Below, piece by piece: positions 20,356 to 36,238 of a stretch of DNA of 64,000 nucleotides. Both the position numbers and the translations under genes were made by a program. The notes beneath the pieces were generated by a model. The model saw nothing but the letters and a program-made list of their open reading frames with translations, was not told the DNA's origin and did no database searches. Source of the stretch: Candidatus Buchananbacteria bacterium (GTDB lineage Bacteria; Patescibacteriota; Patescibacteriia; 2-01-FULL-39-33); the NCBI GenBank assembly GCA_041666945.1, contig JBAYFY010000002.1:701-64700 (forward strand), read 5' to 3'. Each line of letters opens with the position of its first letter. Position 1 is the stretch's first letter.

Positions 20356-22407
20356 ATGACCGAACCAAATAACAACGTAACAATTTTCGGCGAAACCAAC
20401 TATCGCAACGCGCAACGATCTTTCGGGATTAAGCGCGACGATCGGCGGCGCCATATGTATGTCATCGGTAAAACCGGCATGGGAAAAACCACCCTGCTGG
20501 AGAATCTTATTATTTCCGATATTTTAAACGGCGAGGGCTGCTGCTATATTGATCCGCACGGCGATACGGCGGAAAAGCTGTTGGATTTCATTCCGCCGCA
20601 CCGCATTAACGACGTAATTTATCTCAATCCGGCCGATGCCGAATTCCCCATCGCTTTCAACGTATTGGAATCGGTGGATGAAATCAACAAGAATTTCGTC
20701 GCCTCCGGCCTTATTTCAGTTTTTAAGAAGCTCTGGGCCGATTCCTGGGGTCCGCGTTTGGAATACATTTTGCGCAACACCATTTTGTCGCTTTTGGATT
20801 ATCCCGGTTCCACCTTGCTGGGCATCATGCGCATTTTGGTGGAAAAGGACTATCGCGAGAAGGTCGTGGCCAAAATCAAGGATCCGGTGGTGCGCAGTTT
20901 TTGGGTCAACGAATATTCCAAATGGAATGAGAAGACCTTGCAGGAAGTCATTTCACCCATCCAGAACAAGGTCGGACAATTCTTGTCTAATTTTTTAATT
21001 CGCAATATTGTCGGCCAGGTAACTTCCACCATTGATTTGCGGGAAATCATGGATAACAAAAAAATCCTTATTTTGAATCTGGCCAAAGGAAAAATCGGCG
21101 AAGACACTATGAAACTTTTGGGTTCCATGATCGTAACCAAGTTATATTTGGCGGCCATGAGCCGGGTGGATATTCTGGAAAAGGATCGCCCTGATTTTTA
21201 TCTGTATGTGGATGAATTTCAGAATTTTGCCACGGAAAGTTTTGCCAATATTTTATCCGAAGCCAGAAAGTACCGTCTCAATTTGATTGTGGCGCATCAA
21301 TACATTGAGCAATTGCCCGAAGAAGTGGCGGCGGCCGTGTTCGGCAACGTCGGCACTTTGATTTGTTTCCGGGTCGGCGCCGCCGATGCCGAGAAATTAG
21401 TATTGGAATTCGCGCCGTTTTTTACGGAAGAGGATCTGGTCAATCTGCCGGCTTTCGCTGTTTATCTTAAATTGATGATTGACGGCGTGTCTTCCGATCC
21501 GTTTTCCGCCGCTACTTTGCCGCCGCTGTTTGAAGAATATCGCACCAATAATAGCGAGAAGGTAACTTATGTTTCCCGCGAACGCTACGCCAACCCGCGC
21601 ACGGTGGTGGAAGACAAAATTAACCGCTGGAGCGCCACTGATTTGAGCACGCGGATGGGCGATATCGCCGCTCACGCCGAAAAAGGCGAATTAAAAATGG
21701 GCGAAGTGGTGCCGATGAAAGAACCGGTGGCCGGTCCGACGATTTCCTTGTCGGCTTTAGGCACCGGCACTTTGCCGTCTACGCCGCCTCGGCCGATGGT
21801 GTGGCCCAGACGTGACGAACGTCCGGTTAGACGCGATACCCGGTCTTTTAACCGCGATGGCAGGCAAGATGATCGCCCGCTTCGGCGCGATGACCGTTCC
21901 TTTCAGCGCGATGACCGCAGTTCACGAGATGTCCCCATGACGGAAAGACGGGAAGAACGCCCGCGAGAAGAGCGGCCGGACGACAGGCGCGTTGGCGAGA
22001 GCCGCGACAGTTACGGCCAACCGGCAAGAAAAGACGCGGGAGAACGCCGCGAGTTCGGCAAGTTTGACGCGAAGTGTTCCATGTGCGGCAATATGTTCAA
22101 GCTGAATTTTCAGCCGGAAAAGGGCCGGCCGGTGTATTGCGGCGATTGCTTTAAAAAAGTCAAAGACCAGCGACGCAAGCCGGAACCGGAACGCGAGCCG
22201 GCGATCAAGATGCTGGAACAATTGGTGCGCCGCGAAGATACGGATGATGCCCCGCCTTTGAGTTTGTCGTCGCTCCAGCCGCGTCAGCCGATTCTGCCGC
22301 CGCCGGATTTAAGCGCCGGACCGGCTATGCCATCAGCCGCTTTGCCGGATAATCCGCCGGCCGACGAGGAAGTGGAAGAGATCTATCAAACGAGACAGCA
22401 ACGATAA
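20356..22407 (+). CDS. TraD/VirD4/TrwB-like coupling-protein ATPase (no TM) with RD-repeat tail and zf-trcl-type zinc ribbon
   Basis: Walker A GKTGMGKTT followed by IDPHGD. Walker B FYLYVDEFQNF. C-terminal RRDxRSFxRDDR repeats, then CSMCGNMFKLNFQPEKGRPVYCGDC. Confidence 0.75.
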   Translation: MTEPNNNVTIFGETNYRNAQRSFGIKRDDRRRHMYVIGKTGMGKTTLLENLIISDILNGEGCCYIDPHGDTAEKLLDFIPPHRINDVIYLNPADAEFPIAFNVLESVDEINKNFVASGLISVFKKLWADSWGPRLEYILRNTILSLLDYPGSTLLGIMRILVEKDYREKVVAKIKDPVVRSFWVNEYSKWNEKTLQEVISPIQNKVGQFLSNFLIRNIVGQVTSTIDLREIMDNKKILILNLAKGKIGEDTMKLLGSMIVTKLYLAAMSRVDILEKDRPDFYLYVDEFQNFATESFANILSEARKYRLNLIVAHQYIEQLPEEVAAAVFGNVGTLICFRVGAADAEKLVLEFAPFFTEEDLVNLPAFAVYLKLMIDGVSSDPFSAATLPPLFEEYRTNNSEKVTYVSRERYANPRTVVEDKINRWSATDLSTRMGDIAAHAEKGELKMGEVVPMKEPVAGPTISLSALGTGTLPSTPPRPMVWPRRDERPVRRDTRSFNRDGRQDDRPLRRDDRSFQRDDRSSRDVPMTERREERPREERPDDRRVGESRDSYGQPARKDAGERREFGKFDAKCSMCGNMFKLNFQPEKGRPVYCGDCFKKVKDQRRKPEPEREPAIKMLEQLVRREDTDDAPPLSLSSLQPRQPILPPPDLSAGPAMPSAALPDNPPADEEVEEIYQTRQQR

Positions 22408-22442
22408 ATAATTTTTAATCGGCTGCTAGTTTTATGCCGTAA

Positions 22443-22584
22443 GCCAATATAGTCCCCCGGGGCAAGCCCCAGAGTAATAGAGATTGCGTACTAAATAACC
22501 CGGCAAGCCAAGCAGTATTTGACTATATTGGCGTCGCTCGCTCGGAATCCAGCGCTTTGAAGCGCTGGTTCGCTCGCTCACTAG
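22443..22584. repeat. MITE-like element copy A (12-bp terminal inverted repeats gccaatatagtc / gactatattggc plus GC-rich tail)
   Basis: Inverted partner found at 27532..27636. Internal palindromes. Sits in the intergenic region upstream of rubrerythrin. Confidence 0.7.
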
Positions 22585-22604
22585 CCAATAAATAAGTCAA
22601 TTAT

Positions 22605-23189
22605 ATGTCCGAAACCATCAAAAATCTGGCCAAAGCGTTCATCGGCGAATCGCAAGCCAGAAATCGTTATACCATGTATAGCAAAGTCGCTAAAAAGGAG
22701 GGATATGAACAGATTGCCGAGATATTTTTAATCACCGCGGACAATGAGCGTGAACACGCAGCCAAACTGTTTGAGGAAATCCAAAATTTGAAAAAACACT
22801 CCAAAGAGGATTTGGCGGCGATTAAGGTTGAAGCCGAAGCGCCCACGACTTATGGCACCACGGCGGAAAATTTAAAAGCCGCCATTGCCGGAGAGAATTG
22901 GGAATATGTTACCATGTATCCGGAGTTTGCCGCTAAGGCCGAAGAGGAGGGCTATGACAAGATCGCCACGCGTTTGAAATCAATCGCCATAGCCGAAAAG
23001 CATCATGAAGAAAGATACATAAAATTGTTGCGGCAAGTTGAAGCCGGTACGGTTTTCAAGAAGGAAGAAGAGGTTTGGTGGATCTGCCGCGAATGCGGTT
23101 ATGCGCATTTCGGCAAGGAAGCGCCCAAGGAGTGCCCGTCCTGCAACCATGCCCGGGCTTTTTATCAGCTTAAGTGCGAAGAATACTAA
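22605..23189 (+). CDS. rbr: Rubrerythrin
   Basis: Ferritin-like diiron motifs (EREHAAKL, E..H) plus C-terminal rubredoxin-like CRECG...CPSC. Confidence 0.85.
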   Translation: MSETIKNLAKAFIGESQARNRYTMYSKVAKKEGYEQIAEIFLITADNEREHAAKLFEEIQNLKKHSKEDLAAIKVEAEAPTTYGTTAENLKAAIAGENWEYVTMYPEFAAKAEEEGYDKIATRLKSIAIAEKHHEERYIKLLRQVEAGTVFKKEEEVWWICRECGYAHFGKEAPKECPSCNHARAFYQLKCEEY

Positions 23190-23200
23190 ATTAGTTAGTC

Positions 23201-23248
23201 GTTACTTAATGAAATACTTAAAATGTTACTTAATGAAATACTTAAAAT
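23201..23248. repeat. Perfect 24-bp tandem duplication (gttacttaatgaaatacttaaaat x2), giving four TACTTAA heptamers at 12-bp spacing
   Basis: Read directly from sequence between the rubrerythrin stop and the superoxide reductase start. Confidence 0.8.
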
Positions 23249-23301
23249 ATTGAATAAAATTACTTCAAAACTGCCAACTAACAATTAATTGCTAAAAACT
23301 T

Positions 23302-23673
23302 ATGAAACTAAACGAAGTTTACAAATGCCCGATTTGCGGCAATATCGTGGAAGTCGTTCATGTGGGCGGAGCGGCTCTGGTCTGTTGCGGCCAGGAGATG
23401 ATTTTGCAAGTGGAAAATTCCGTTGATGCCGCGCAAGAGAAGCATGTGCCGGTGATTGAAAAAACTGAAACGGGGATAAAAGTCAAAATCGGCGCCGCGC
23501 CTCATCCCATGGAAGAGGTCCATTATATTGAGTGGATTGAGATTATTGTTGATGATCGGGTTGATCGCAAATATTTGAAGCCGGGAGACGCTCCCGAAGT
23601 CGAATTCAATCGGATCGGAGAAAACATTACCGCCCGCGCCTATTGCAATCTGCACGGCTTGTGGAAAAAATGA
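23302..23673 (+). CDS. dfx: Desulfoferrodoxin-type superoxide reductase
   Basis: N-terminal desulforedoxin motif [12 protein letters not shown]...CCG. C-terminal SOR centre with YCNLHGLW. Confidence 0.85.
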
Positions 23674-23743
23674 TTTTGGACTGAAATTTAATGCCGATTA
23701 AAAATTAATCAAATCCAATCAAAATAATAAAAAACAGCCGCCT

Positions 23744-23776
23744 CCCATTCGGGTGGCGGCTTTTTGAAAGTGCGGA
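23744..23776. terminator. Bidirectional rho-independent terminator
   Basis: aaaaaacagccgcc-tcccattcggg-tggcggctttttg, flanked by an A-run and a T-run. Lies between dfx (+) and the convergent minus-strand operon. Confidence 0.7.
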
Positions 23777-23816
23777 TTAAGCGGATTAAGATGCCGTTAA
23801 ACAGGCCTAACTGTTT

Positions 23817-24392
23817 TCAGGTATTTTTTCGCTTGATGTCGAGATAGAGGGTTTGGTAAGATAACCCCTCGTTAATTAATGGTTCAGTTTTCAAGCCAAC
23901 CTTCAATCGGTAACCGGCGCTTCGGCATAGTGAAGCAAGTTCTTTGTATTGAGGCAGGTTTAGCACCTGTATCATAGTAACGGGGAAAACATCAGCCGCC
24001 TTTGTTTTTATATGGCGGCAAAACATCAGAAGACGGGGTGAATACAATATTACATCGTTTTGCGCTTCTTTAAAGAAAGAGGCGAATTGTTCAAGCGTCT
24101 GCGCTTGCAGTTTTTCTTTTGCTTCATGCTCAAATCCGTCGCCCGAGGCGTTACCGGGGGCTGGCGCCGGCGGTTCTTCCAAAGTTTGTTCCGCGACGAT
24201 AATCTTGTCAAAAACCTTGTCATAAATCCGTTCCAGCCAAAAGCCCGTTCCGTCGCTTCCGGCGGTAAAGCAATAACCATGCTCCAGCATGGTTGCCACA
24301 GCCGTTTGCGTGTCAACAGCCACAACAGCTATTACTTGATCAAGGGAACGGAATTCAAAAATTTTGGTCTTCAGCGTTTCTTCATCAGGCAT
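23817..24392 (-). CDS. Hypothetical protein
   Basis: 191 aa ORF, last gene of a three-gene minus-strand operon. No recognisable motif. Confidence 0.5.
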   Translation of the reverse strand: MPDEETLKTKIFEFRSLDQVIAVVAVDTQTAVATMLEHGYCFTAGSDGTGFWLERIYDKVFDKIIVAEQTLEEPPAPAPGNASGDGFEHEAKEKLQAQTLEQFASFFKEAQNDVILYSPRLLMFCRHIKTKAADVFPVTMIQVLNLPQYKELASLCRSAGYRLKVGLKTEPLINEGLSYQTLYLDIKRKNT

Positions 24393-24419
24393 ATTCTGTT
24401 CTCCTGCCGTTTCGGTGGG

Positions 24420-24971
24420 TTATTCTTTCCAATCAATAGTAACACTGATCAGGCCGGTATCTTCTTGGATTGTTGATTCATACCGCAGCTCATTCTTTAC
24501 GCAAAAATCCTCAATTATTTCGCCGGCGAAAGGCGCAAATTGTGTCAGATAAGCACTTTTGAATAAATTAATGATTTGTTGGGTTCTGGGCGGTTGATGG
24601 CGTTCAGAGCTAAGTCCGTCAATTTCATCTTTTAATAACTTATTCAAGTCAATGAAATCGAAACTGCAACTGGTTTTCTCTTTTTCAGCCGCCGCCATAA
24701 GCGTTTGCGGCAATTTTTCAATCAGATCATTAGCCCAATCAATAAACGGTTTCATTCGTTTGAGTCGCTCTTCCTGCTCTTTATCTTCCCTCACTCGTCT
24801 GCTGTTTTTAACATTTATCCGTAACAGTTGTCCGAGAGTGCTTTTCTTTTCGGAACTCTCATTTGTAGGATTTCCCATATTTTTCTCCTCCCAAGTTTTT
24901 TCGGTTTTTGGTTTGGCAGAAAATGAAAAATATACGGTAAAATCAAAATGCGGAAGATACGGCAAAATCAA
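24420..24971 (-). CDS. Hypothetical protein
   Basis: 183 aa ORF (the start may be the internal Met). Charged, low complexity in its N-terminal half. Confidence 0.45.
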   Translation of the reverse strand: MILPYLPHFDFTVYFSFSAKPKTEKTWEEKNMGNPTNESSEKKSTLGQLLRINVKNSRRVREDKEQEERLKRMKPFIDWANDLIEKLPQTLMAAAEKEKTSCSFDFIDLNKLLKDEIDGLSSERHQPPRTQQIINLFKSAYLTQFAPFAGEIIEDFCVKNELRYESTIQEDTGLISVTIDWKE

Positions 24972-25209
24972 AATTCAAAACTATCACGCCGTTAGACAGT
25001 TGCATCATGGCGGTTAAGCTGGCTTGTGGTATAACCTCGGTCACGGCAGATTTGGCCAATGATATTTGCGCTGTCGGATCTTTTAATGGTTTAATGCAAA
25101 TTAGTCCATTATCCAACCAAAAACAGGAGACATTGTCATCCAGCACCTGTTTTAAAGCGTTTTCTAAACCAGTTAACTGTTTTACGGTTGCGACGGGTTT
25201 GTCAGCCAT
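24943..25209 (-). CDS. Hypothetical small protein
   Basis: 88 aa ORF, first gene of the minus-strand operon, divergent from dnaG. Confidence 0.4.
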   Translation of the reverse strand: MADKPVATVKQLTGLENALKQVLDDNVSCFWLDNGLICIKPLKDPTAQISLAKSAVTEVIPQASLTAMMQLSNGVIVLNFDFAVSSAF

Positions 25210-25597
25210 GGTTGTCCCTCCTGTTGCAGCGTTGTTTTGGATTATTACTATTTTTTCTTACCCGTATAATCTTTATTTTTTTATCCTTTTTGCCCGCAGA
25301 CGCGTTTTGTTTATGCCCTCCCATTCAATTGTAAAGAACTTCAATGCCGTATATTATCATTTTTGACCGCATCTTGTCAATATTGCTTAAACCGTTGTAT
25401 TTATTGTATGATTTATAGGTCAAACGACTTTTCCGTTGTCATCCCCAAGTATCAATATGTAAGTGGAGAAGCTACTTTATAACGCAAGCGATTCCTCCGC
25501 CGCGTCCGTTATCCGTCAACCGAAAGAGGCGGGACTTCCGGTCGGAATGACAATATGAAGTGAATTTTATTGATAAACGTTAATTTACATCAAACCT

Positions 25598-27520
25598 GTG
25601 TCTTCCCCCGAGATAGAACAAATCAAAGCCAAAATAGACGTCGCCGAGCTCCTCGGCGAATATTTGAAATTGTTGCCGGCCGGCGCGGGAGCGTACAAGG
25701 CGCTCTGCCCCTTCCATAACGAGAAGACGCCCTCGCTGATGGTTTCGCCGGCTCGCGGCAGTTGGCATTGTTTCGGTTGCGGCGCGGGCGGGGATATTTT
25801 TGAGTTTTTAATGAAGATGGAAAATATTGATTTTCCCGAAGCGTTAAAAATTTTGGCGCAAAAGGCCGGCGTTGCTTTGTCGCGCCATCGGCCGGAAATC
25901 GCCAGCAGAAAAAACAACTTGTATGATATTTGCGATTTGGCCGCCAGGTATTGGCAGAAGGTGCTTGCGGAATCGCCGCGAGCGCAAGCGGCGCGCGATT
26001 ATCTGGCCGGCCGCGGCGTCAGTGAAGAGACGATAGAGAATTTTAAGATCGGTTACGCCATTGACGACTGGAGCAACCTTGTTGATTTTTTGAAGAAAAG
26101 GGGTTTTGCCGAACAGGAAATATTTTCTGCCGGCTTCACTGTCAGAAAAGAGCGGGGGAGCGGATATTATGACCGTTTCCGGAATCGCGTCATGTTTCCC
26201 ATCATTGACCACAACGGCCGGGTGTGCGGTTTTACCGGACGGACGCTGTCCAAGGATGAGCCGGCCAAGTATGTCAACACGCCCCAGACCGATGTTTATA
26301 ACAAAAGCGCCATCGTCTTCGCTTTGTATCAGGCCAAAAACGAAATCAGGAAACAGGATTTTGCCGTGGTGGTGGAGGGCCAGATGGACGCGGTCAGCTG
26401 CCATCAATACGGTTTCAAGAATACGGTCGCTTCTTCGGGTACGGCTTTGACCAAAGAGCAACTGCAACTGCTCAAACGCTACACCAATAATATTTGTTTC
26501 GCTCTGGATGCCGATGCGGCCGGCCAAAAAGCCACTGATCGCGGCAATGATCTGATTAATCAAATGGATAAAGTGGTGGTGGAGGGCCGGGACAGAAACG
26601 GCCGCGTTTCTCAATTCGTTGACCCGGCTTTGAGTTATAATTTGAACTTGAAAATAATCTCCATTCCCAGCGGCAAAGATCCGGATGAATGCCTGAAGAA
26701 GAATCCGGCGGATTGGGCGGAGGCGGTGTCTGCCGCCCAGCCGGCGCTGGAATATTTCTGGCGCGTGTCTTCAGCCGGCCGCGATTTGAGCGACCCGCAA
26801 ATAAAAAAACAAGTTGCCAAATTCCTGGGTGAGAAAATCGCCCGGCTGGATGATCCGATTGAACGCGATCATTGGCTGCAAGAGATCTCCCGCCGCCTGG
26901 GAGTAAGGGAAGAGGCCCTGCGGGAACTGGTCGCCAGGTTTGAAAGCCGGCTAAAAAGCCCCGCTGGGGCCCCTGTAAGGCCCCAAGATGCCGCCAGGTC
27001 AACCGTGCCCCAAAATACGACAAATGACCGGGATTTATTGATGTTTATGAGGATTTTGGCGTTAATCTGGACTTTTCCGGATTTTTTGGCCAAATTGGGG
27101 GATTATCTGGAACCGGAGGTTTGGATTGATCCGTTGGCCGAAGATCTTTACAAAAAAATTATTTTATTTTATACTGTAAACAACGAACTGTTTTCCATCA
27201 GCGCCGCTAAGCGGGAGGAACAAACCATATTTGACCTGTTTTATGACTGGGTCAAAACCCAAGCCGTGAGCGAGTCAGCGCTTAAAACACTCGAACAATC
27301 GTATCTTTTGGCGCAGAAGGATTTTGCCGATCTGGACGCCAAGGAAGCGAAAAACGAACTTGATACCCTTATCAGGTTGCTTAAAAGCAACTATCTTAAT
27401 GTCATGATTTCCCGCCTCAAGATAAAATTGGATGAAGCGGAGAAAACCGGCGACGCCGCGTCAGCCGAGAACATTTATTTGGAGTTATCCGAGCTGATTA
27501 AAAAGAAATCAGCGGTTTAG
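25598..27520 (+). CDS. dnaG: DNA primase
   Basis: Zinc-binding CPFHNEKTPS...CFGCG, TOPRIM VVEGQMD, GTG start. Confidence 0.9.
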   Translation: MSSPEIEQIKAKIDVAELLGEYLKLLPAGAGAYKALCPFHNEKTPSLMVSPARGSWHCFGCGAGGDIFEFLMKMENIDFPEALKILAQKAGVALSRHRPEIASRKNNLYDICDLAARYWQKVLAESPRAQAARDYLAGRGVSEETIENFKIGYAIDDWSNLVDFLKKRGFAEQEIFSAGFTVRKERGSGYYDRFRNRVMFPIIDHNGRVCGFTGRTLSKDEPAKYVNTPQTDVYNKSAIVFALYQAKNEIRKQDFAVVVEGQMDAVSCHQYGFKNTVASSGTALTKEQLQLLKRYTNNICFALDADAAGQKATDRGNDLINQMDKVVVEGRDRNGRVSQFVDPALSYNLNLKIISIPSGKDPDECLKKNPADWAEAVSAAQPALEYFWRVSSAGRDLSDPQIKKQVAKFLGEKIARLDDPIERDHWLQEISRRLGVREEALRELVARFESRLKSPAGAPVRPQDAARSTVPQNTTNDRDLLMFMRILALIWTFPDFLAKLGDYLEPEVWIDPLAEDLYKKIILFYTVNNELFSISAAKREEQTIFDLFYDWVKTQAVSESALKTLEQSYLLAQKDFADLDAKEAKNELDTLIRLLKSNYLNVMISRLKIKLDEAEKTGDAASAENIYLELSELIKKKSAV

Positions 27521-27531
27521 TTTTTATTGGA

Positions 27532-27636
27532 TAGTGAGCGAGCGACGCCAATATAGCCAAATACTGCTCGGCTTGCCGAGTTGTTAGTACGCAAGTTCTA
27601 TTATCGCCCCAGGGTTTACCCCGGGGGACTATATTT
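27532..27636. repeat. MITE-like element copy B (inverted relative to copy A)
   Basis: Its reverse complement aligns to 22443..22584 at roughly 80 percent with small indels, and it has the same terminal inverted repeats. Lies between dnaG and rpoD. Confidence 0.7.
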
Positions 27637-27651
27637 TAAAAACAATTCGTC

Positions 27652-28911
27652 ATGTCAAAAATAAAAAAGAAAAAACCGGCCAAGAAGCCGGTTAAAATCA
27701 AAGCCAAAAAAAAGTTGGCGCATCATTTGCCCAAAGCGCGCAAGCCGACCAGAGGCAAGAAATCGCGCAAAGCCAAGGCGCGAGCCAAGGAACCGTTGCG
27801 CCAGATAGCCCTGCCCAATCCGTTGGAGATTGAGGCGGTGATGAAGAAAGGCAGGATCCGCGGTTTTGTAACCGAGCAGGAATTGGCGTTGCTCTACCCG
27901 GAGATAGAAGAATACGTTGACCAGTATGAAGGCATGCTGGATGATTTGGATTATGCCAATATCGCCGTCGTGGAAGCGCCGTCGCTTCTGGGCAAACCGC
28001 CGACAGGCGTGCCGCCGCCGCCGCTGACGACCAAAGAAAAGAAAGCCGCCAAGATTTCCTTGAGCGAGAATATTGATTTGGGCGATATTTCCGCCGACTC
28101 CATTCAGATGTATCTGCGCGAAATCGGCAAGGTGCCGCTTCTGCATACCGAGGAAGAGATTTCTTTGGCCAAGCGGATTGAGCGCGGCGATGTGGAAGCC
28201 AAGCAGAAATTGATTAAGGCCAATTTGCGCCTGGTGGTTTCCATTGCCAAAAAATTCACAGGCAAGAACCTGTCGCTTCTGGATCTGATTCAGGAAGGCA
28301 ATATCGGGCTGTTCCGCGCCGTAGAAAAATTTGATTATCACAAGGGCTATAAATTTTCCACTTACGCCACTTGGTGGATCCGCCAGGCCATTACCCGCTC
28401 GCTCGCGGACCAATCGCGCACCATTCGCATTCCCGTTCACATGGTGGAGAACATTAATCGTTTTCAGCAAGTGGAACGGCGTTTGGTGCAGGACTTGGGA
28501 CGCGAACCCATGCCTGAGGAGATTGCCGCGGAAATGGGCGAGGAATTGGAAAAGGTTTTGCACATCTTAAAGATTTCGCAGGAGACGATTTCGCTGGGCA
28601 CGCCCGTGGGCGACGACAGCGAGGACTCGGTGCTGGAGGATTTTATTGAAGACCAGAAAACCTTGACGCCGGATCGCGCCGCCGCTTTGCGCATTTTAAG
28701 CGATTATGTGAGACAGGTGATCAGCGAGCTGACGCCGCGCGAACAAAAAGTGTTGGAAATGCGTTTTGGCTTGCGCGATGGCGTGGCCCATACTTTGGAA
28801 GAAGTGGGCAAGGAGTTTGATGTTACCCGCGAACGTATCCGCCAGATTGAAGCCAAGGCGCTGGAAAAGATTGAAAAGATACAGGGGATTGAAAAGCTAA
28901 GGGATTACTAA
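27652..28911 (+). CDS. rpoD: Primary RNA polymerase sigma factor (sigma-70 family)
   Basis: Lys-rich N-terminus. Region 2 motifs ([26 protein letters not shown]...[13 protein letters not shown]). Region 4 [24 protein letters not shown]. Confidence 0.9.
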
Positions 28912-29397: not shown

Positions 29398-29432
29398 TTA
29401 TAGCGCATTTCACGGTGTTTGTCAATAGTTGA

Positions 29433-29516
29433 CGTTGAATCCTGCCAAGCCGGGTTTTTCCACAGGACAAATAATCTTGACAACCGCCTGTTTTTTTGCT
29501 AATATTATTAACACTA
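29433..29516 (+). promoter_or_regulatory. 84-bp repeat copy 1, containing consensus sigma-70 promoter (TTGACA-17-TAATAT) for tRNA-Asn
   Basis: TTGACA at 29477..29482 and TAATAT at 29500..29505. Near-identical copy at 40003..40086. Confidence 0.7.
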
Positions 29517-29539
29517 TTACCTTAAAACGAGTTCTAAGC

Positions 29540-29613
29540 TCAGCGGTAGCTCAACGGTAGAGCAACCGGCTGTTAACCGGTAGGTTACTGGTTCGAATCC
29601 AGTCCGCTGAGCC
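29540..29613 (+). tRNA. tRNA-Asn (anticodon GUU)
   Basis: Cloverleaf folded by hand. Acceptor TCAGCGG/CCGCTGA, D stem GCTC/GAGC, anticodon stem ACCGG/CCGGT with loop CTGTTAA, T stem ACTGG/CCAGT with TTCGAAT loop, discriminator G followed by CC. Confidence 0.85.
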
Positions 29614-29759: not shown

Positions 29760-30008
29760 GTGTATAACATGGCTTTGAAAGTTTTGGATCCCAAGTCTGC
29801 ATTGCGGGCAATGGAGCTATCGCGCGGGTCTTATCGGCCAAAAGAGATTATTGAATTGAAAGAAGCGATAGACGGAGAAACGCGGGCGAGCGAATTGGCA
29901 GCGTCCGTTTCCGGTGTCGTTGATTTAGAACGGGTAAAGAAAATTGTTGCCATGAAAATCCAATTGGATGGTTTGTACATTGATTGGATTGAAGGAAGGA
30001 TATCATAA
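29760..30008 (+). CDS. Hypothetical small protein (first ORF of island)
   Basis: 82 aa ORF with no motif. Weak call. Confidence 0.3.
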   Translation: MYNMALKVLDPKSALRAMELSRGSYRPKEIIELKEAIDGETRASELAASVSGVVDLERVKKIVAMKIQLDGLYIDWIEGRIS

Positions 30009-30251
30009 GGGGATTATAATAGTTGCGTCGCCGTGAGTGGTGACGCTTTTTTTTTATTTAAAACGTAAGGTTTGACTGAATCCGGACGGGTCAGAAACGA
30101 GACAACTTTTGTTACGTAGTATGTTACGTAACAAGAAATGTGTTGTCAAATAATTTTTATATATTTACCCGCTCTCCCGTGTGCGTAAACTGCACCCTCT
30201 TGATAATTATTCTAACTTTGAATATTCTTATATTGAATATATCATAAAGGT

Positions 30252-30473
30252 ATGCCAAAGACAATACATACAGACGAATATCAAAGAATTACCGAACGGC
30301 TCAAACAAGCCAGGGTTGATGCTGATTTCACACAAGAAGAAGTGGCTAAAAGAATTAAAAAGCCCCAATCTTATGTTTCTAAAATTGAGGCAGGGGAGCA
30401 GAGGATTGATATTATTGAACTTAAAGTATTTGCTAAACTTTACAAAAAGGAAGTTGATTATTTTATTCAATAG
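30252..30473 (+). CDS. XRE-family HTH regulator, likely R-M controller (C) protein
   Basis: 73 aa. LKQARVDADFTQEEVAKRIKKPQSYVSKIEAGEQ is a canonical Cro/C1 HTH. Sits 4 nt upstream of the next ORF and is convergent with the MTase. Confidence 0.8.
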   Translation: MPKTIHTDEYQRITERLKQARVDADFTQEEVAKRIKKPQSYVSKIEAGEQRIDIIELKVFAKLYKKEVDYFIQ

Positions 30474-30477
30474 ATAT

Positions 30478-31449
30478 ATGGAAAGGATAAATTATAAGGA
30501 ATTAATAGAGAAGTATCCTTGGGTTGTGGAAAAAGATCATGATTGTATATTGAGCCCAGACAGCGACGGTTTGCTGTGCGGTCTTTTTATGGCACATTAT
30601 TTGAATTGGAAAATAAGGGGATATTACGACGGAAAGGTATTAATTGTTGATAAAGGTGTAGATTTGCGTGAGTGTGTATTTTTGGATATGGAGATTTTTC
30701 GTAAAGAAATTAGAAGTGTGGGCCATCATATGGTGCTTTATAATAAAAATAAAAAACCGGAATCCTGGCATAATTTTGAGAATTGTGTTCAGCCGAATAA
30801 TTTACGTGATTATGATGGCGCCAAAAACTTCCCTTTAAAATATCCGTTAGCGACAATTCATTTATTGATTGGTATATTAAATAGTAAATTTTCAATTGAT
30901 ATTTCTGAATCGGCTATTTGTCCCTTATTGTATACAGATGGAGTTTTTAAAAATTTATTTGGATATCCGGAAAATTGTTTGGATTGGCTGAATTATCTTG
31001 GGGCAAACAATAAAGAAACAGCATTACATCAGATATTTCATAATGATTATTACTCCATTCATGATTTAATGGACGCTTTGAAGGATTTTTTTGAAAAAAT
31101 ATCTAATATTGGTGAAGGTAAAAGGGGTAATGATAAAATTAAAATATCAAATACTAAGAGCGAATTGGTAAATTTAGAAAAATCAGAGGATTGTTATTTT
31201 ATTAATAATGAAGCGAAAATAAAGGCCACAAAGTTTATAATGATATTATCCGAGTTGACGGGTTGGAAATATAAGGAAAATCATTGGTTATGGTCTGGTT
31301 TTAAAGTGATTAAATTCGAAAAATCTAAAATAAAACCAAATAATAAAAATTTTGAATTTTTATTGTCAAAAAATCCGCTGTCTTGGGCTATGACCAGCGG
31401 ATTAGATATAGAATACACTTTAGATCCTGATAATCTTTTATTAAAGTAG
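30478..31449 (+). CDS. Putative type II restriction endonuclease (position-based inference)
   Basis: 324 aa AT-rich ORF between the C-protein and the convergent MTase. No family-level motif recognised. Confidence 0.4.
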   Translation: MERINYKELIEKYPWVVEKDHDCILSPDSDGLLCGLFMAHYLNWKIRGYYDGKVLIVDKGVDLRECVFLDMEIFRKEIRSVGHHMVLYNKNKKPESWHNFENCVQPNNLRDYDGAKNFPLKYPLATIHLLIGILNSKFSIDISESAICPLLYTDGVFKNLFGYPENCLDWLNYLGANNKETALHQIFHNDYYSIHDLMDALKDFFEKISNIGEGKRGNDKIKISNTKSELVNLEKSEDCYFINNEAKIKATKFIMILSELTGWKYKENHWLWSGFKVIKFEKSKIKPNNKNFEFLLSKNPLSWAMTSGLDIEYTLDPDNLLLK

Positions 31450-32934
31450 TTTGTTTTGAAGTGTTTGTCTTTCTTCTTTTATTCGTTTTTTTGCCAACTC
31501 GCAATATTCTTCTGAAATTTCAAAACCAATATAGTTTCGGTCTTGATTGATGGCGGCCAATGCAGTAGTGCCGCTTCCTAGAAATGGGTCAATAACAATC
31601 CCTTTAGGCGGACAAAAACATTGAATAAAATCAACTGGTATTTTATCTGGAAAAGTTGCCGGATGTTGATGTTTTAAACGGGTTCCGTCACCGCAAGTTA
31701 CATAATCCCAAATCGTCCCCCTACATTTCAGAGGATTTATTGTTACTTTATGGGATTGTAATGTTTTGCCGTTCGTTAATCTCGTTGCGCATCCAGTCAT
31801 GGTTTTACCGCCATGTTTTGATGGTATTTTTAAATGATCTTTTTGAAAATATTGCGGTCTCTCTCCCTTCAGAAATATTGGGATATATTCGTGATCGACC
31901 CTGAATCTTTTAGTCCACCAGGCGCCTTCGGCGCCGTGTTTTTTATAAATAACAGTTTCGAATAGTTTAAATCCAATATTATCGCACCAATCAATAATAG
32001 TACGAAATGATGTTAGTGATTTACCAAAGTTTTTGGTTTGATCTTGGATTACCATTATTGCAACTCCTCCGTTTTTCAAAATTCGAAAAATTTCTTTTCC
32101 CGTATCATGCAAATTATAATTGAATCCATTATAGTCCCTTACGCTGTCGTAGGGAGGGGAAGTAACTATTACGTCAATTGAATTGTCTGGTAATCTTTTC
32201 ATTCCTTCAACGCAATCCACACATTGTACCGTGTTAAGAACTTGTTTTAAATTCAATTCCCTGTTTATTTTTTGGTCATAATCATGAGACGTACTATTGT
32301 ATTCAAATGTTATATTTGGTTGCTCTTGTTTGATAATATCAAAAACGACTCCCTGAATATTAAATTTTTGATTTTTGTTTACTATAATCGGGCTAAATTG
32401 CTTATTAGCCGGTTGAAGCCGTATTTGATTTTTTTCTTTATAGTATCTTTTTAATGTCGCCTCAGTGTTATTAATCAACGCAACAACTCGATCTCCATTA
32501 TTAGCGGTTTGTTGATTTTTAACTAAAATAATATCGCCGTTGTTAATGTTTTCATCAATCATGCTATTACCACTAACCTTTAAAGCATAGAAATTACCGT
32601 TAGATGGTAAATTTGACTTAGGTACCGCAATGGTCTCCCTTTCTTCAATTGCTTCAATTGGTTGACCGGCGACGATAGTGCCAAAAAATGGAACCTGAAT
32701 TAAGAGTTCGCTGGAAAAAATATCAATGCTTCTGGCATGGTTCTCTGTTTTGTTTAAAAATCCCTTATCTTTAAGTGCCTCAATGTGTTGATGAACCGTG
32801 CTAACTGATAGTTTAAAATGCTTTCCGATTTCCTCAAGAGAAGGGGAATATCCATTTTTTTTGATGTAATCCTTAGTGTAATTAAGGATTTCTTTTTGTC
32901 TTGGGGTTATCATATTTGACTTTATTTTGAGCAA
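31441..32934 (-). CDS. Fusion: LexA-like repressor (wHTH + S24 autopeptidase) :: beta-class N4/N6 DNA methyltransferase
   Basis: N-terminus matches LexA (PRQKEIL..., GNSM catalytic Ser, TLKRY catalytic Lys). C-terminal part has motif IV VTSPPY before motif I DPFLGSGTT. This is the pfam N6_N4_Mtase order. Confidence 0.8.
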   Translation of the reverse strand: MLKIKSNMITPRQKEILNYTKDYIKKNGYSPSLEEIGKHFKLSVSTVHQHIEALKDKGFLNKTENHARSIDIFSSELLIQVPFFGTIVAGQPIEAIEERETIAVPKSNLPSNGNFYALKVSGNSMIDENINNGDIILVKNQQTANNGDRVVALINNTEATLKRYYKEKNQIRLQPANKQFSPIIVNKNQKFNIQGVVFDIIKQEQPNITFEYNSTSHDYDQKINRELNLKQVLNTVQCVDCVEGMKRLPDNSIDVIVTSPPYDSVRDYNGFNYNLHDTGKEIFRILKNGGVAIMVIQDQTKNFGKSLTSFRTIIDWCDNIGFKLFETVIYKKHGAEGAWWTKRFRVDHEYIPIFLKGERPQYFQKDHLKIPSKHGGKTMTGCATRLTNGKTLQSHKVTINPLKCRGTIWDYVTCGDGTRLKHQHPATFPDKIPVDFIQCFCPPKGIVIDPFLGSGTTALAAINQDRNYIGFEISEEYCELAKKRIKEERQTLQNKLL

Positions 32935-33227
32935 GATTTATTATATAAGTATTATACCGAAAATAAACCGAAAGTAGAAGTTGAGTTATCCACAGCAAAC
33001 ATTGCTAATGTGTTGCATATGATTTTATTAAATGGAATAATTGCCAAAAGTCTATTGGCGCGCTAAAATTGAAGCAAATATGGCCTGTGATATCAAAAAT
33101 CACCGAAAACTCAGAATGATAAGTTAGAAGGTTCTAATAGTTTGAGAACATCAATTAAATAAAAAATACTTTGTTTTAATCACCTTGAAAATAATAAGAT
33201 TTCTTAAAAATAATTGACGATAATAAT

Positions 33228-33578
33228 ATGGATCTTAAAAATTTTACAAAACAAGCCATTTTAGAAATTACCGAGGCCGTTAAAGAAATAAATATTGATA
33301 GAGAGGTTTTATTGGTATCCGGCAAGGATAAGCGAACAATAGAATTTGATGTGGCCGTAACTGTTGAGGAAAATAGAGCTACAACTGGCAGTGGACAGAT
33401 TCAAGTGCTAGGTCTTATTCGGGGAGAGGGCGATATTAAACAAGAAGTTAAAAATGCTACTGTTAGCAGAATTGAATTCGGTGTTTCGATAGCAACAGCA
33501 ACAAAAGCCGAGATTGAAAAGCAACGATTAGAAATCGAAGCGTATAATAGAAGAAATCAAGATTCTAGTTATAAATAA
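33228..33578 (+). CDS. Hypothetical protein, probably co-transcribed with Abi-like gene
   Basis: 116 aa. The following gene starts 18 nt after its stop. Confidence 0.45.
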   Translation: MDLKNFTKQAILEITEAVKEINIDREVLLVSGKDKRTIEFDVAVTVEENRATTGSGQIQVLGLIRGEGDIKQEVKNATVSRIEFGVSIATATKAEIEKQRLEIEAYNRRNQDSSYK

Positions 33579-33596
33579 TAGAATTTATAACTTTTT

Positions 33597-34646
33597 ATGG
33601 AAAGCGAATTAGAGTCTTGGCAGATAACAGATTTTAATTTGAATGACAATCAGCTCAAGATTGACAAGCTTGGTCTTATAAAAATAATTAGAAGTGATGA
33701 TGGTATTTTAACTCTTGTTAGTGACGCAAATTACGGGGTCATAGATCATGAAAAACCCTCACCGGCAAAGTTTGCTAACAATGATTCTATTTTGGGGTTT
33801 ATACTTGATATAGGCATTAGAAGAGAAAAAGTGCTTGCCAGTGGACATGGTTTTTATTTCGGTAGATCAATAATTAGGCCCCAATCCTCAAAAATTATTT
33901 CTCAGAATGATTTCGATGAGGAATTATTTGAAAAAATCAGTGATATCATTAACAGCAAATATCAATCCAATAATAAACAAGAAGAAACGGAGGCAATAAG
34001 ATTGAGGTTTTTATTTGATACATACAATAATGCTCGTCTTTTATTCCCTAATTTTTTATCAGAAAGTTATCTTAACCTATTACGAATTATCGACGCATTA
34101 AGCGTTAAGAGGCACGCTGAAAGTTTCGCTCTATTCGCAGCAATGATTTCCTCAGATTTAAATGATGCAATTTATAATAAAGTAAATATTATAGAGGGAT
34201 ATAAGGATAGAATAGATTATGCGGCTGATTTATTTAAAAATTTAATGGAGAAAAAAAATATTGAGAGATCCTGTAAAGCTGAAATGGGTAAATTAAATGA
34301 TAAAGGAAAGTTTATTTTTTCTTGTTTCTATGTTGCTTACCAGTACAGAAACAAATTTGTTCATCTCGGCTTCCCATTTCCAGACACCGTTAAGAATTCT
34401 TATGGCTTAAAGGATGGCTCCGGTACTGCATTTTTAAATCCAGCGCTTGGTATTTATTGGCGAAAAGTTTATAGGCCGAATGGAATCGAAGATGGCGATT
34501 TAATAGACATACATCAATTTATGCCCGACGAAGAAGAGGCGCAAAAATTTAAAGACGAATATTTTAAGCTTCTGCCAACTTGGCATTTTGTAAAACAACT
34601 AACTAGAGAGGCGTTACGGAAAAAAATTATTAACGAATCTAAATAA
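33597..34646 (+). CDS. Abi_2 / AbiD-AbiF-like abortive-infection protein (HEPN Rx4H)
   Basis: 349 aa. YQYRNKFVHLG matches the HEPN R-x4-H motif typical of Abi_2. Size and AT-rich context fit. Confidence 0.55.
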   Translation: MESELESWQITDFNLNDNQLKIDKLGLIKIIRSDDGILTLVSDANYGVIDHEKPSPAKFANNDSILGFILDIGIRREKVLASGHGFYFGRSIIRPQSSKIISQNDFDEELFEKISDIINSKYQSNNKQEETEAIRLRFLFDTYNNARLLFPNFLSESYLNLLRIIDALSVKRHAESFALFAAMISSDLNDAIYNKVNIIEGYKDRIDYAADLFKNLMEKKNIERSCKAEMGKLNDKGKFIFSCFYVAYQYRNKFVHLGFPFPDTVKNSYGLKDGSGTAFLNPALGIYWRKVYRPNGIEDGDLIDIHQFMPDEEEAQKFKDEYFKLLPTWHFVKQLTREALRKKIINESK

Positions 34647-34795
34647 AATTATATGGAAAAATATATTCGCAAAGTAACTCATGCCGGCAAAATAATCCTG
34701 TCAATCGTTATCCCGACAGAAATCGTGGATGAATTAAAGATAAAAGAAAAGCAGAAATTGACCATAACGACAAAATGCAAGAGTATTATTAAAGA

Positions 34796-35476
34796 TTGGA
34801 AATAGTTTTAATTATGATTCCAAAACAAGAAAAAATATATAATGAATTAGGTAAACAATTAGTTAATTGTAATTTTAACTGTTCCGGTATTAATAATAAT
34901 AAAAAGTTCGGGTATTTTCCTCGGCTATTATTTATAGAAAAAGGAAATGATAATGGAAAAGGAGCAATTATTATCGGATTAAATCCAGGCAAGTGTGGTG
35001 AATCAGAACGAAAGTGGGTTAGTAAAAATCAAGATTATTGGGTTAATCAAAAAGATTATTATAGTAATAATTTATTAAAGTGGAAGTATTTTCGTCGCGT
35101 TAAGGAGCTATTAAATTTACTTGGTTATCAAGGTGATATCTTATGGACAAATTTAGTAAAATGTGAGTGCATCGGTAGTAACGGAGATTTACCGATACAA
35201 ACCATAAGGACATGTGTAAACAAATTTTTAAAGAACGAAATTGATAGTTTATTGCCTCAGTGTGATATATTTGCCATAGGTAACCAATCTTTTGGGATTA
35301 GTTCGGTGGCATTTCCTAATAATTTTGTAATTGGGTTGCCCCATTCATCTGGTCCGTATGCTTCAACTAAATTTTTACGATTGTTAGAAAAAATTAGAAA
35401 AGACAAAAAAAAGTATTTAAACATAATTAATAAGAAAGGGGATAATAATAATCAGATTTTAGCAATAAAATTATAA
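34796..35476 (+). CDS. Uracil-DNA glycosylase superfamily-like protein (MUG/TDG-like motifs)
   Basis: GAIIIGLNPGKCGE (motif A, compare the GINPG of Mug) and GLPHSSGPY (motif B, compare NPSGLS). Confidence 0.5.
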   Translation: MEIVLIMIPKQEKIYNELGKQLVNCNFNCSGINNNKKFGYFPRLLFIEKGNDNGKGAIIIGLNPGKCGESERKWVSKNQDYWVNQKDYYSNNLLKWKYFRRVKELLNLLGYQGDILWTNLVKCECIGSNGDLPIQTIRTCVNKFLKNEIDSLLPQCDIFAIGNQSFGISSVAFPNNFVIGLPHSSGPYASTKFLRLLEKIRKDKKKYLNIINKKGDNNNQILAIKL

Positions 35477-35488
35477 AATGGTAATACT

Positions 35489-36238
35489 ATGAAAGTGGGT
35501 AGGAATGATCAATGTCCCTGTGGTAGCGGTCGAAAATATAAGCATTGCTATCAGGATCATGATAGCGGTTGTTTACAAAAATTAAAGGATGATAGAATTA
35601 AAATGTTAGCAGAACATAATGACCGTGAAAAAAAAGTATTTCGTTTTTTTAATGAAGTAATAGAAGAAACAAATATTATTTTATTAAAATCAGAAGATGG
35701 TCATGATAAGATTCAGTCACGAATACAAATGATTATTATTTTTAGTTTGGTCGACATGTTGGGCGGTTATTGGTATACGTTTCTCGGGCAGAATGGTAAA
35801 ACATTAGAGCGTCCAAAAAATTGGTACAACAAATACTGTGCTACTGAAGAGAATATACATTATAAAGATTTTTGGACGGAATTAAATGTTGAACGCTTGT
35901 ATGTTTTTAGAAATTCCCTCGTTCATTTTTTTGGATTAGGTGAAAAATACGATAATATATACATTTCACTCGCATCAAATAATTTGCCAGATAAAACGCA
36001 TAAAAATTGGCAAGAAGAATTTTCAAAAAAAGGAGACAAGACGATTATTATTAGACCAGAAGATTTTTATAATTTAATAAAAGAGGGTGGCGTATTGATG
36101 CTAAAAGAATGGGGGAATATGATTAAGCAAGCACAAACCAATAGAGATAAAGAGTGTTATTATATTAATGGCATAGAACGAGTCTGGGATAAGATTAGAA
36201 AAGAAGGGGCTGTAAGAATTCCAAGTAATATTAAATAA
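35489..36238 (+). CDS. SEC-C zinc motif + HEPN-like (Rx4H) domain protein
   Basis: N-terminal GRNDQCPCGSGRKYKHCY is near-identical in pattern to the SecA C-terminus. Later FRNSLVHFFGLGE is an Rx4H motif. Confidence 0.6.
   Translation: MKVGRNDQCPCGSGRKYKHCYQDHDSGCLQKLKDDRIKMLAEHNDREKKVFRFFNEVIEETNIILLKSEDGHDKIQSRIQMIIIFSLVDMLGGYWYTFLGQNGKTLERPKNWYNKYCATEENIHYKDFWTELNVERLYVFRNSLVHFFGLGEKYDNIYISLASNNLPDKTHKNWQEEFSKKGDKTIIIRPEDFYNLIKEGGVLMLKEWGNMIKQAQTNRDKECYYINGIERVWDKIRKEGAVRIPSNIK

Follow-up and report, generated by a model that had tools for sequence, protein, structure and literature searches.

Inverted repeats around the rubrerythrin–dnaG region of a Candidatus Buchananbacteria genome are probably insertions of a small non-autonomous mobile element

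The stretch of DNA considered here, termed the window, comprises 64,000 nucleotides of a Candidatus Buchananbacteria contig (JBAYFY010000002.1, assembly GCA_041666945.1). It contains two similar repeats, copy A and copy B, which lie in inverted orientation on either side of a block of genes extending from rubrerythrin (rbr) to dnaG. These repeats are probably two insertions, independent of each other, of a mobile element that is non-coding, rich in hairpins and non-autonomous, and that belongs to a family specific to this Candidatus Buchananbacteria lineage. The original prediction had offered two insertions of a small non-autonomous element as its fallback, and it is this reading that is borne out, by copies elsewhere, by empty sites in sister species and by the absence of coding capacity. 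The combination of identical copies, deletion variants, decay by transitions only, empty orthologous sites and mixed orientation argues for recent or ongoing mobility and for neutral decay, and not for a selected RNA.

The repeat pair

All positions are those of the window, and labels such as L006, L009 and L019 denote retrieved loci. The two copies are:

22446-22590, plus strand: copy A, the long form, 145 nucleotides (nt) with both flanking AATA
27525-27635, minus strand: copy B, the short form, 111 nt with both AATA

Copy A is situated between the stop codon of a traG/VirD4-like gene (22407) and the ATG of rubrerythrin (22605), and copy B between the dnaG stop (27520) and the rpoD ATG (27652); earlier gene calls around the repeats hold. 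An inverted-repeat search of the window returned four collinear inverted arms (22446-22592 versus 27523-27635) with complementarities of 88-96%, including the pairs 22494-22551/27528-27585 (58 nt, 88%), 22446-22469/27612-27635 (92%) and 22570-22592/27523-27545 (96%). The repeat unit matches the locus with E=5e-27 in blastn, and the 64-kb window has exactly two occurrences of a 32-nt core, GCAGTATTTGRCTATATTGGCGTCGCTCGCTC, while 100 shuffles gave none. In a hand-curated alignment, the degapped rows of which were checked against the source sequences, A and B are identical at 91 of 107 aligned positions (85%) and differ additionally by one 36-nt indel. Eleven of the 16 substitutions are transitions, and the longest exact run common to the two copies is 21 nt. 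The inverted similarity, put originally at about 80%, is therefore real. The limits first given to the copies (22443..22584 and 27532..27636) had to be moved to those listed above on the basis of the family alignment. No third copy was found in the window by sensitive blastn and blastn-short searches or with an nhmmer profile.

Dispersed copies of the element

As the differences between A and B are nearly all transitions, metagenomes held at JGI were scanned with a purine/pyrimidine-degenerate 32-mer. The scan returned exactly three loci, all from sample Ga0172379, which match the element over 120-146 nt and have no other likeness to the window. The first of these, copy C, has clpP and an HD-domain gene as its neighbours; copy D adjoins ychF, and copy E adjoins the gene for the CCA-adding enzyme and rluD. 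At least five copies are thus known, dispersed and every one of them intergenic, and the search for further copies that the original prediction called for has yielded them at unrelated loci. Copy lengths range from 111 to 146 nt, free of open reading frames (ORFs) and without coding capacity. Relative to the flanking genes, two copies are in sense and three in antisense orientation.

Copies D and E show 100% identity along a stretch of 121 nt. Their 3' flanks differ, so that they represent distinct insertions, and their identity points to recent activity. A complete copy D is present at L021 11326-11471 on an ENA contig. The least similar pair in the family is A and B, while A is nearest to D and E. 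Several JGI and Logan contigs break within the element (at the end of L010 and at the starts of L012 and L018), which is the usual signature of a multi-copy repeat; the element would account for contig breaks in short-read assemblies of the Candidatus Buchananbacteria lineage.

The proteins adjoining C and D have 100% identical counterparts on a single 300,510-bp contig of ENA sample ERZ27249449, and occur also in Logan run SRR6484324; both datasets hold the window's own contig. On this co-occurrence, and on parallel relatives, A to E are very probably five copies of one Candidatus Buchananbacteria genome. A 22-nt exact pattern run against the GTDB species genomes gave one match, in a Chloroflexi metagenome-assembled genome, which lies inside a membrane-protein ORF, has no further similarity and was set aside as chance. 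Scans of IMG/VR with several parts of the element gave nothing or 16-nt chance matches, and the consensus had no match in phage and plasmid collections (blastn, distant mode).

Empty sites in sister species

Sister species were reached through homologues of DnaG, the HD-domain protein and YchF. They are referred to as S2 (JGI 3300029288 and Logan SRR8542065), S3 (Logan SRR27710297) and S4 (SRR8925740); the region from rbr to rpoD corresponds to locus L006 in S2 and L009 in S3. The element is absent from all four orthologous sites examined (A, B, C and D) in sister species. Both S2 and S3 have the gene order traG-rbr-SOR-small ORFs-dnaG-rpoD in the same orientation as the window and without the element, although the S3 contig is short and begins within rbr, so that traG is seen in S2 only. 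Between 18 and 30 kb the window is collinear with S2 at 81-86% identity, and the gaps in the blastn alignment fall exactly at 22421-22598 and 27529-27649. In S2 the traG-rbr spacer is 61 nt long and the dnaG-rpoD spacer 81 nt; the latter is occupied in S3 by 119 nt of unrelated, hairpin-rich filler.

At site A, S2 reads GTG-AATA-AATTAATCA where the window reads GCC-AATA-(body)-AATA-AATAAGTCA. At site B the alignment to both L006 and L009 ends at 27527/27528 and restarts at 27650, and in S2 the conserved GGTTTAG(C/T)TTT is followed by one TATT only. The empty site C of S2 (L019) reads ...CCGGTTTTTGTT/TGACTTAATCG, or in a shorter excerpt ...TTTTTGTT/TGACTTAATCG, where the slash marks the start of the common right flank. 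The filled site, with the element in parentheses, reads ...GGAGTTTTTATT(GGCTAGTG...GGGACTA)TATT/TGACTTAATCG, the corresponding shorter excerpt being ...TTTTTATT(GGCTAG...GGGACTA)TATT/TGACTTAATCG. This comparison places copy C between the T-run of the clpP terminator and the intact -35 box (TTGACT) of the HD-domain gene. Site D is empty in S3 and S4 (L023 and L024).

The filler at the copy-B site in S3 (L009 4192-4310) is GC-rich and contains the hairpins GTCCG-TTCAAG-CGGAC and TTCCCGC-GTAG-GCGGGAA, while the same spacer in S2 is plain AT-rich DNA. The dnaG-rpoD spacer looks like a hotspot of small, structured insertions.

Anatomy of the element

Comparison of the five copies defines a conserved span, from AATA-TAGTC... 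to ...CACTAGCC-AATA, that exceeds the unit first described. The element has a body of about 137 nt, or 145-146 nt including AATA on each side. From 5' to 3', the family unit begins with AATA followed by TAGTC and by hairpin 1 (CCCCGGGG-CAAG-CCCCGGGG). There follow TAATAG..TTGCGTACTAA, hairpin 2 (CTCGG-CAAG-CCGAG), CAGTATTTG and the 12-mer GACTATATTGGC. The 3' part consists of GTCGCTCGCTC, hairpin 3 (CCAGCGCT-TTGA-AGCGCTGG), TCGCTCGCTC and ACTAGCC, followed by AATA. In copy A these parts lie as follows:

22446-22449, plus strand: 5' AATA, resembling a target-site duplication; it is preceded by AGCC, giving AGCCAATA, as at the 3' end of the element
22455-22474, plus strand: hairpin 1 (CCCCGGGG-CAAG-CCCCAGAG), degraded by two G>A changes on the plus strand
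22499-22512, plus strand: hairpin 2 (CCCGG-CAAG-CCAAG), with two C-A mismatches
22521-22532, plus strand: internal 12-mer GACTATATTGGC, originally taken for the 3' terminal inverted repeat
22533-22579, plus strand: tail module, comprising GTCGCTCGCTC, GGAAT, hairpin 3 (22549-22568), T and TCGCTCGCTC
22580-22590, plus strand: 3' terminus, ACTAGCC and AATA, kept in five of five copies (ACTATCC in B)

The corresponding parts of copy B are:

27607-27626, minus strand: hairpin 1 (CCCCGGGG-TAAA-CCCTGGGG)
27567-27580, minus strand: hairpin 2 (CTCGG-CAAG-CCGAG)
27529-27558, minus strand: 3' part, comprising the 12-mer GGCTATATTGGC, a single GTCGCTCGCTC and ACTATCC

The internal palindrome CCCCGGGG and the inward-directed CGCTCGCTC tail are present in both copies as originally described. 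The 12-bp terminal inverted repeats proposed at the same time fare less well: the pairing of GCCAATATAGTC with GACTATATTGGC does extend over 12 bp in A, but in B the counterpart (AATATAGTC/GGCTATATT) is 9 bp long with one G-T pair, and the 3' arm is not terminal in either copy. It is internal, being followed by about 60 nt more in the other copies, and by 25 nt in B, as far as ...CACTAGCC-AATA. Within the 12-mer, CTATATT pairs with the 5' end AATATAG, and TATTGGC complements the 3' end GCCAATA.

The hairpins are variably present. B and D have an intact hairpin 1, and C has lost it; hairpin 2 has the perfect form (G)CTCGG-CAAG-CCGAG(C) in the copies other than A. The tail module, a perfect 8-bp hairpin flanked by 10-nt direct repeats, is found with hairpin 3 in A, C, D and E; in C the hairpin 3 loop is flipped (TCAA for TTGA). 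In copy B a 36-nt deletion has taken away hairpin 3 together with the second direct repeat. The extra hairpin CCAGCGCTTTGAAGCGCTGG was thus correctly noted as present in A and missing from B, but it is not best read as an insertion in A, four of the five family members having it. The long form is canonical, and B most simply arose by deletion between the two 10-nt TCGCTCGCTC direct repeats. Copy A, which is 92-94% identical to D and E and differs from them at 7-11 positions by transitions only, is decaying, with C-A mismatches in the stems of hairpins 1 and 2.

Target site and mode of insertion

All four complete copies have AATA on both sides, and the alignable empty sites have a single AATA or AACA (TATT on the other strand), as seen for A, for the left junction of B and for C. 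Directly before the 5' AATA, A and D carry AGYC, and C carries AGTCA, which is longer by an A; in 125 kb, the AGYC prefix precedes only about 1% of AATA sites. The resulting AGYCAATA resembles the element's own 3' end, AGCCAATA. The 3' ends of three of the five copies (B, C and E) are set against the T-run of the intrinsic terminator of the upstream gene. Copy B is inserted just past the T-run of the following structure:

27493-27513, plus strand: dnaG terminator-like hairpin GCTGATT-AAAAAGA-AATCAGC, followed by GGTTTAGTTT; kept in sister species

At L021 11471-11510, L017 9760-9800 and L010 10490-10530, the 3' AATA of the element starts or abuts an intrinsic terminator. In copy D, a terminator stem (AATAAATAGC-ATTTA-GCTATTTATT) with its T-run opens with the flanking AATA.

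In the proposed mechanism an enzyme whose gene lies elsewhere in the genome would mobilize the element in trans. Insertion would take place at AATA in AT-rich intergenic DNA, often right behind a terminator T-run and preferably after AGYC. Either AATA would be duplicated by cut-and-paste transposition of the DDE type with a 4-bp target duplication, or the element would bring its own 3' AATA and insert without duplication, by a target-specific reaction of the IS200/IS605 or recombinase type. The inverted layout around rbr...dnaG would then reflect two hits that happened to fall in neighbouring intergenic regions.

The second of these routes may be set out as an explanation in its own right, in which the element moves as a single strand, driven by an HUH/Y1 enzyme (derived from IS200/IS605, as in the palindrome-associated transposable elements, PATEs), or is driven by a recombinase, and is not a miniature inverted-repeat transposable element (MITE) of the DDE type; it would insert without duplication 3' of (AGYC)AATA. 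Every copy has the same tetranucleotide in its 5' flank and at its 3' end, the true termini lack terminal inverted repeats, there are subterminal hairpins at both ends, and the target mimics the 3' end of the element. The AGYC prefix is exact at two of the four sites and has a 1-nt indel at a third, against its low background, and in C the AGTCAA part belongs to the flank, since it is present in the empty site L019. The joined ends GCC-AATA-TAG have their complement in the internal 12-mer CTATATTGGC; once joined, they would read CACTA-GCCAATA-TAGTC, that is, short inverted arms with a 7-nt spacer. The flipped hairpin 3 loop in C is a sign of palindrome dynamics. The ends of IS200/IS605 elements (IS608) carry similar hairpins, but hairpins 1 and 3 are unlike each other and either is dispensable. 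Moreover, A (plus strand) and B (minus strand) lie 5 kb apart on one replichore, where GC skew is positive throughout, and their opposite orientations conflict with a strict lagging-strand bias; beyond AATA, the target pairs with the 3' end over 3 further nt only (a chance of about 1/64); the 5' flank of B lacks AGYC; and no TnpA, RAYT or integrase was found with Pfam and PHROGs. This mechanism is on balance unlikely.

Several points also weigh against the interpretation of A and B as insertions of a non-autonomous mobile element. No autonomous partner, and no transposase or recombinase domain, was found in the approximately 125 kb of genome read, so that the autonomous insertion sequence (IS) with the same terminal repeats for which the original prediction had hoped did not emerge from it. 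There are no real terminal inverted repeats at the true termini, which have only TAGTC/CACTA in common, and a classical DDE-MITE mechanism is therefore not established. As AATA is the same at every site, a duplication is indistinguishable from an element-encoded end. The assignment to one genome has the co-occurrence of datasets and parallel relatives behind it and not a closed genome, and of the five copies known, four were found by way of the element itself.

Nevertheless, the mobile-element interpretation best accommodates the copies described above, and the family sequences point to recent or ongoing mobility. Genomes of the Candidate Phyla Radiation (CPR), or Patescibacteria, measure about 1 Mb, and identical copies together with empty sister sites indicate that transposition-type activity is ongoing in such a small genome. 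MITE-like repeats in Patescibacteria/CPR are not described in any paper that full-text literature searches turned up. It is rather improbable, however, that this is the first described recently active non-autonomous mobile family in that group to move by target mimicry, instead of classical cut-and-paste, with an HUH or other site-specific enzyme. That view draws on the 3' end AGCCAATA, which copies AGYCAATA, on the 12-mer that complements the joined ends, and on the CACTA-GCCAATA-TAGTC core.

Neighbouring genes and the possibility of a structured RNA

The distance to the next ATG is 14 nt from the end of copy A (rubrerythrin) and 16 nt from the 5' end of copy B (rpoD). At these distances, element sequence is expected within, or directly upstream of, the transcripts of both genes, which must either start in it or read through it. 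Foreign structured DNA has thus been placed 14-16 nt upstream of the starts of rpoD and of an oxidative-stress gene, and copy B, lying immediately before rpoD, could conceivably alter how strongly the primary sigma factor is expressed. It had been suggested that the element supplies promoter or terminator structure, but this found no support. A consensus scan detected one weak (9/12) promoter match in B, TCGGCA-18-TATATT, directed into the tail of B; no canonical -35 was found for the outward TATATT facing rpoD, and no terminator built from element sequence was detected.

Could the three hairpins instead define a multi-copy structured small RNA, or a cis-regulatory RNA acting as a processing site, insulator or stabilizer? 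By their position, copies A, B and D must share transcripts with their neighbours, for they are found 14-16 nt ahead of start codons or in the space from a stop codon to its terminator. The intact copy D also folds better than shuffled sequences on both strands (z = -2.5 and -4.3 as RNA), into two domains closed by AATATAG/CTATATT and TTGGC/GCCAA. The palindromes fold equally on either strand, however, as DNA palindromes would, and none of 25 base pairs is compensatory, the covariation term of RNAalifold being unfavourable (+2.06). At the gathering threshold, Rfam recognizes only tRNA-Asn in the whole window, and even at E<=10 the two copies give chance-level partial matches only (such as NsiR8 and RAGATH-35). 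The copies face either way relative to the flanking genes, entire hairpin modules can be lost (in B and C), the stems of A are mismatched on the sense strand, and the orthologous intergenic regions of close relatives lack the element altogether. A selected RNA is accordingly very unlikely, and neutral decay of a mobile element is preferred.

The enclosed block

The genes in and around the segment between the copies are:

20356-22407: traG/VirD4-like coupling protein
22591-27524, unstranded: enclosed block, given for context only and not a mobile or invertible unit
22605-23189, plus strand: rubrerythrin (Pfam)
23302-23673, plus strand: desulfoferrodoxin (SOR; Pfam)
23817-24392, 24420-24878/24971 and 24943-25209, minus strand: three small ORFs of no family
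25598-27520, plus strand: dnaG
27652-28911: rpoD

The original prediction gave prominence to the geometry of this arrangement, with inverted copies 4.9 kb apart, proposing that the copies are recombination sites, or the ends of a composite transposon, and that the block flips or moves and in so doing uncouples dnaG from rpoD. The centre of the block, where the three small minus-strand ORFs lie, is hypervariable among sister species, which speaks for such a unit. Yet element-free sister species have the identical order and orientation, showing the block to be ancestral, and its identity to S2 (L006) is 81-83% inside and 81-86% outside. The ORFs from 20356 to 28911 include no invertase, integrase, transposase or other recombinase (Pfam, PHROGs). 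A and B are members of a dispersed family, and its most divergent pair at that. Their longest exact run does not exceed the length generally required for efficient RecA recombination, the minimal efficient processing segment of E. coli being about 23-27 bp. On the plus strand the outer left flank reads AATA and the outer right flank TATT, which is not a direct duplication. The window and an independent ENA assembly (contig k141_120855) have the same orientation. Judged by GC skew, all essential genes here are co-oriented with replication, so that inversion would be selected against; a rare RecA-mediated inversion, if it occurred, would leave dnaG and the stress genes running counter to replication. 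It is therefore extremely unlikely that the block is an invertible or composite unit. Nothing about the rbr...dnaG block marks it as a switch or mobile cassette, and a false lead is removed.

The small minus-strand ORFs between SOR and dnaG (23773-25270) have amino-acid identities of 45% and 37% to S2. The same spot holds a tandem paralogue pair in S2 and unrelated small ORFs in S3, with no Pfam or PHROG family.

Other features of the window

An 88-nt direct repeat with 92% identity, containing a strong promoter-like box (TTGACA-17-TAATAT), occurs at 29430-29517 and 40000-40087. The first copy is just upstream of tRNA-Asn (29540-29613), and the second has no tRNA or Rfam match downstream. The two bracket about 10.5 kb, including a segment at about 30000-36000, directly after tRNA-Asn, with a GC content of 32-33% against about 45% elsewhere. 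Synteny with S2 ends at tRNA-Asn, and the low-GC segment includes ORFs that lack Pfam and PHROG matches. This segment is probably an acquired island; no integrase, recombinase or transposase was found in it with Pfam or PHROGs.

A 497-aa ORF at 31441-32934 (minus strand) combines a LexA DNA-binding domain, an S24 peptidase and an N6/N4 DNA methyltransferase, an unusual architecture in which a self-cleaving repressor is joined to a methylase. For an ORF at 36575-39739 (minus strand), about 1030-1054 aa long, the precomputed annotation gives a Pfam match to MVP_shoulder, the shoulder of the major vault protein.

Comparison with known systems

Some candidate systems were tried and rejected. Integron attC sites do not apply, as there are no GTTRRRY/RYYYAAC cores, nor do retron msr/msd elements, as there is no reverse transcriptase. 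A Rep-binding (GCTC)n or AGTATT nonanucleotide-like origin, which the sequence resembles, was dropped, as there is no HUH gene. With invertons and shufflons the pair shares inverted repeats that bracket a segment, but there is no adjacent invertase, the repeats are dispersed, the enclosed genes are essential and housekeeping genes in their ancestral orientation, and a single orientation is seen in two assemblies.

Classical MITEs (derived from IS630, IS5 or IS1) are likewise small, non-autonomous and multi-copy, with insertion polymorphism, an AT-rich target and a short direct repeat on both sides. They differ in that the 9-12-bp inverted repeat of the present element is 5'-terminal at one end and internal at the other, and in that no parent IS was identified. 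PATEs and the repetitive extragenic palindromic elements (REP/REPIN) resemble it in lacking terminal inverted repeats, in their subterminal GC-rich hairpins, in the constant tetranucleotide at the 5' flank and 3' end, and in a target that resembles the element end. Unlike them, the element has dissimilar end hairpins and no replication orientation bias, no TnpA/RAYT gene was found, and there are no GTAG-headed REP palindromes.

BOX elements of Streptococcus pneumoniae (and also ERIC and RUP) are built from modular hairpin boxes that are variably present, and are intergenic, non-coding and found in either orientation, with no evident mobilizing enzyme. Their sequence is unrelated, and the element described here has about five known copies. 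BOX elements are not known to have a counterpart of the flanking AATA repeats and the AGYCAATA target.

The Correia elements of Neisseria (CREE/NEMIS) are unrelated in sequence; their terminal inverted repeats span 26 bp and they duplicate TA, whereas the termini here share only TAGTC/CACTA and are flanked by AATA. Promoter creation and RNase III processing are further traits of the Correia elements. In other respects the two are alike: both are intergenic and non-coding, in a similar size range of about 105-155 bp; both have long and short forms set apart by an internal deletion; both often adjoin gene starts or ends and are co-transcribed; both are flanked by a short AT-rich repeat; and in both, presence or absence varies between close relatives. 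Taken together, these comparisons leave a new family of MITE/Correia/BOX-like intergenic mobile repeats as the best-supported description of the element.

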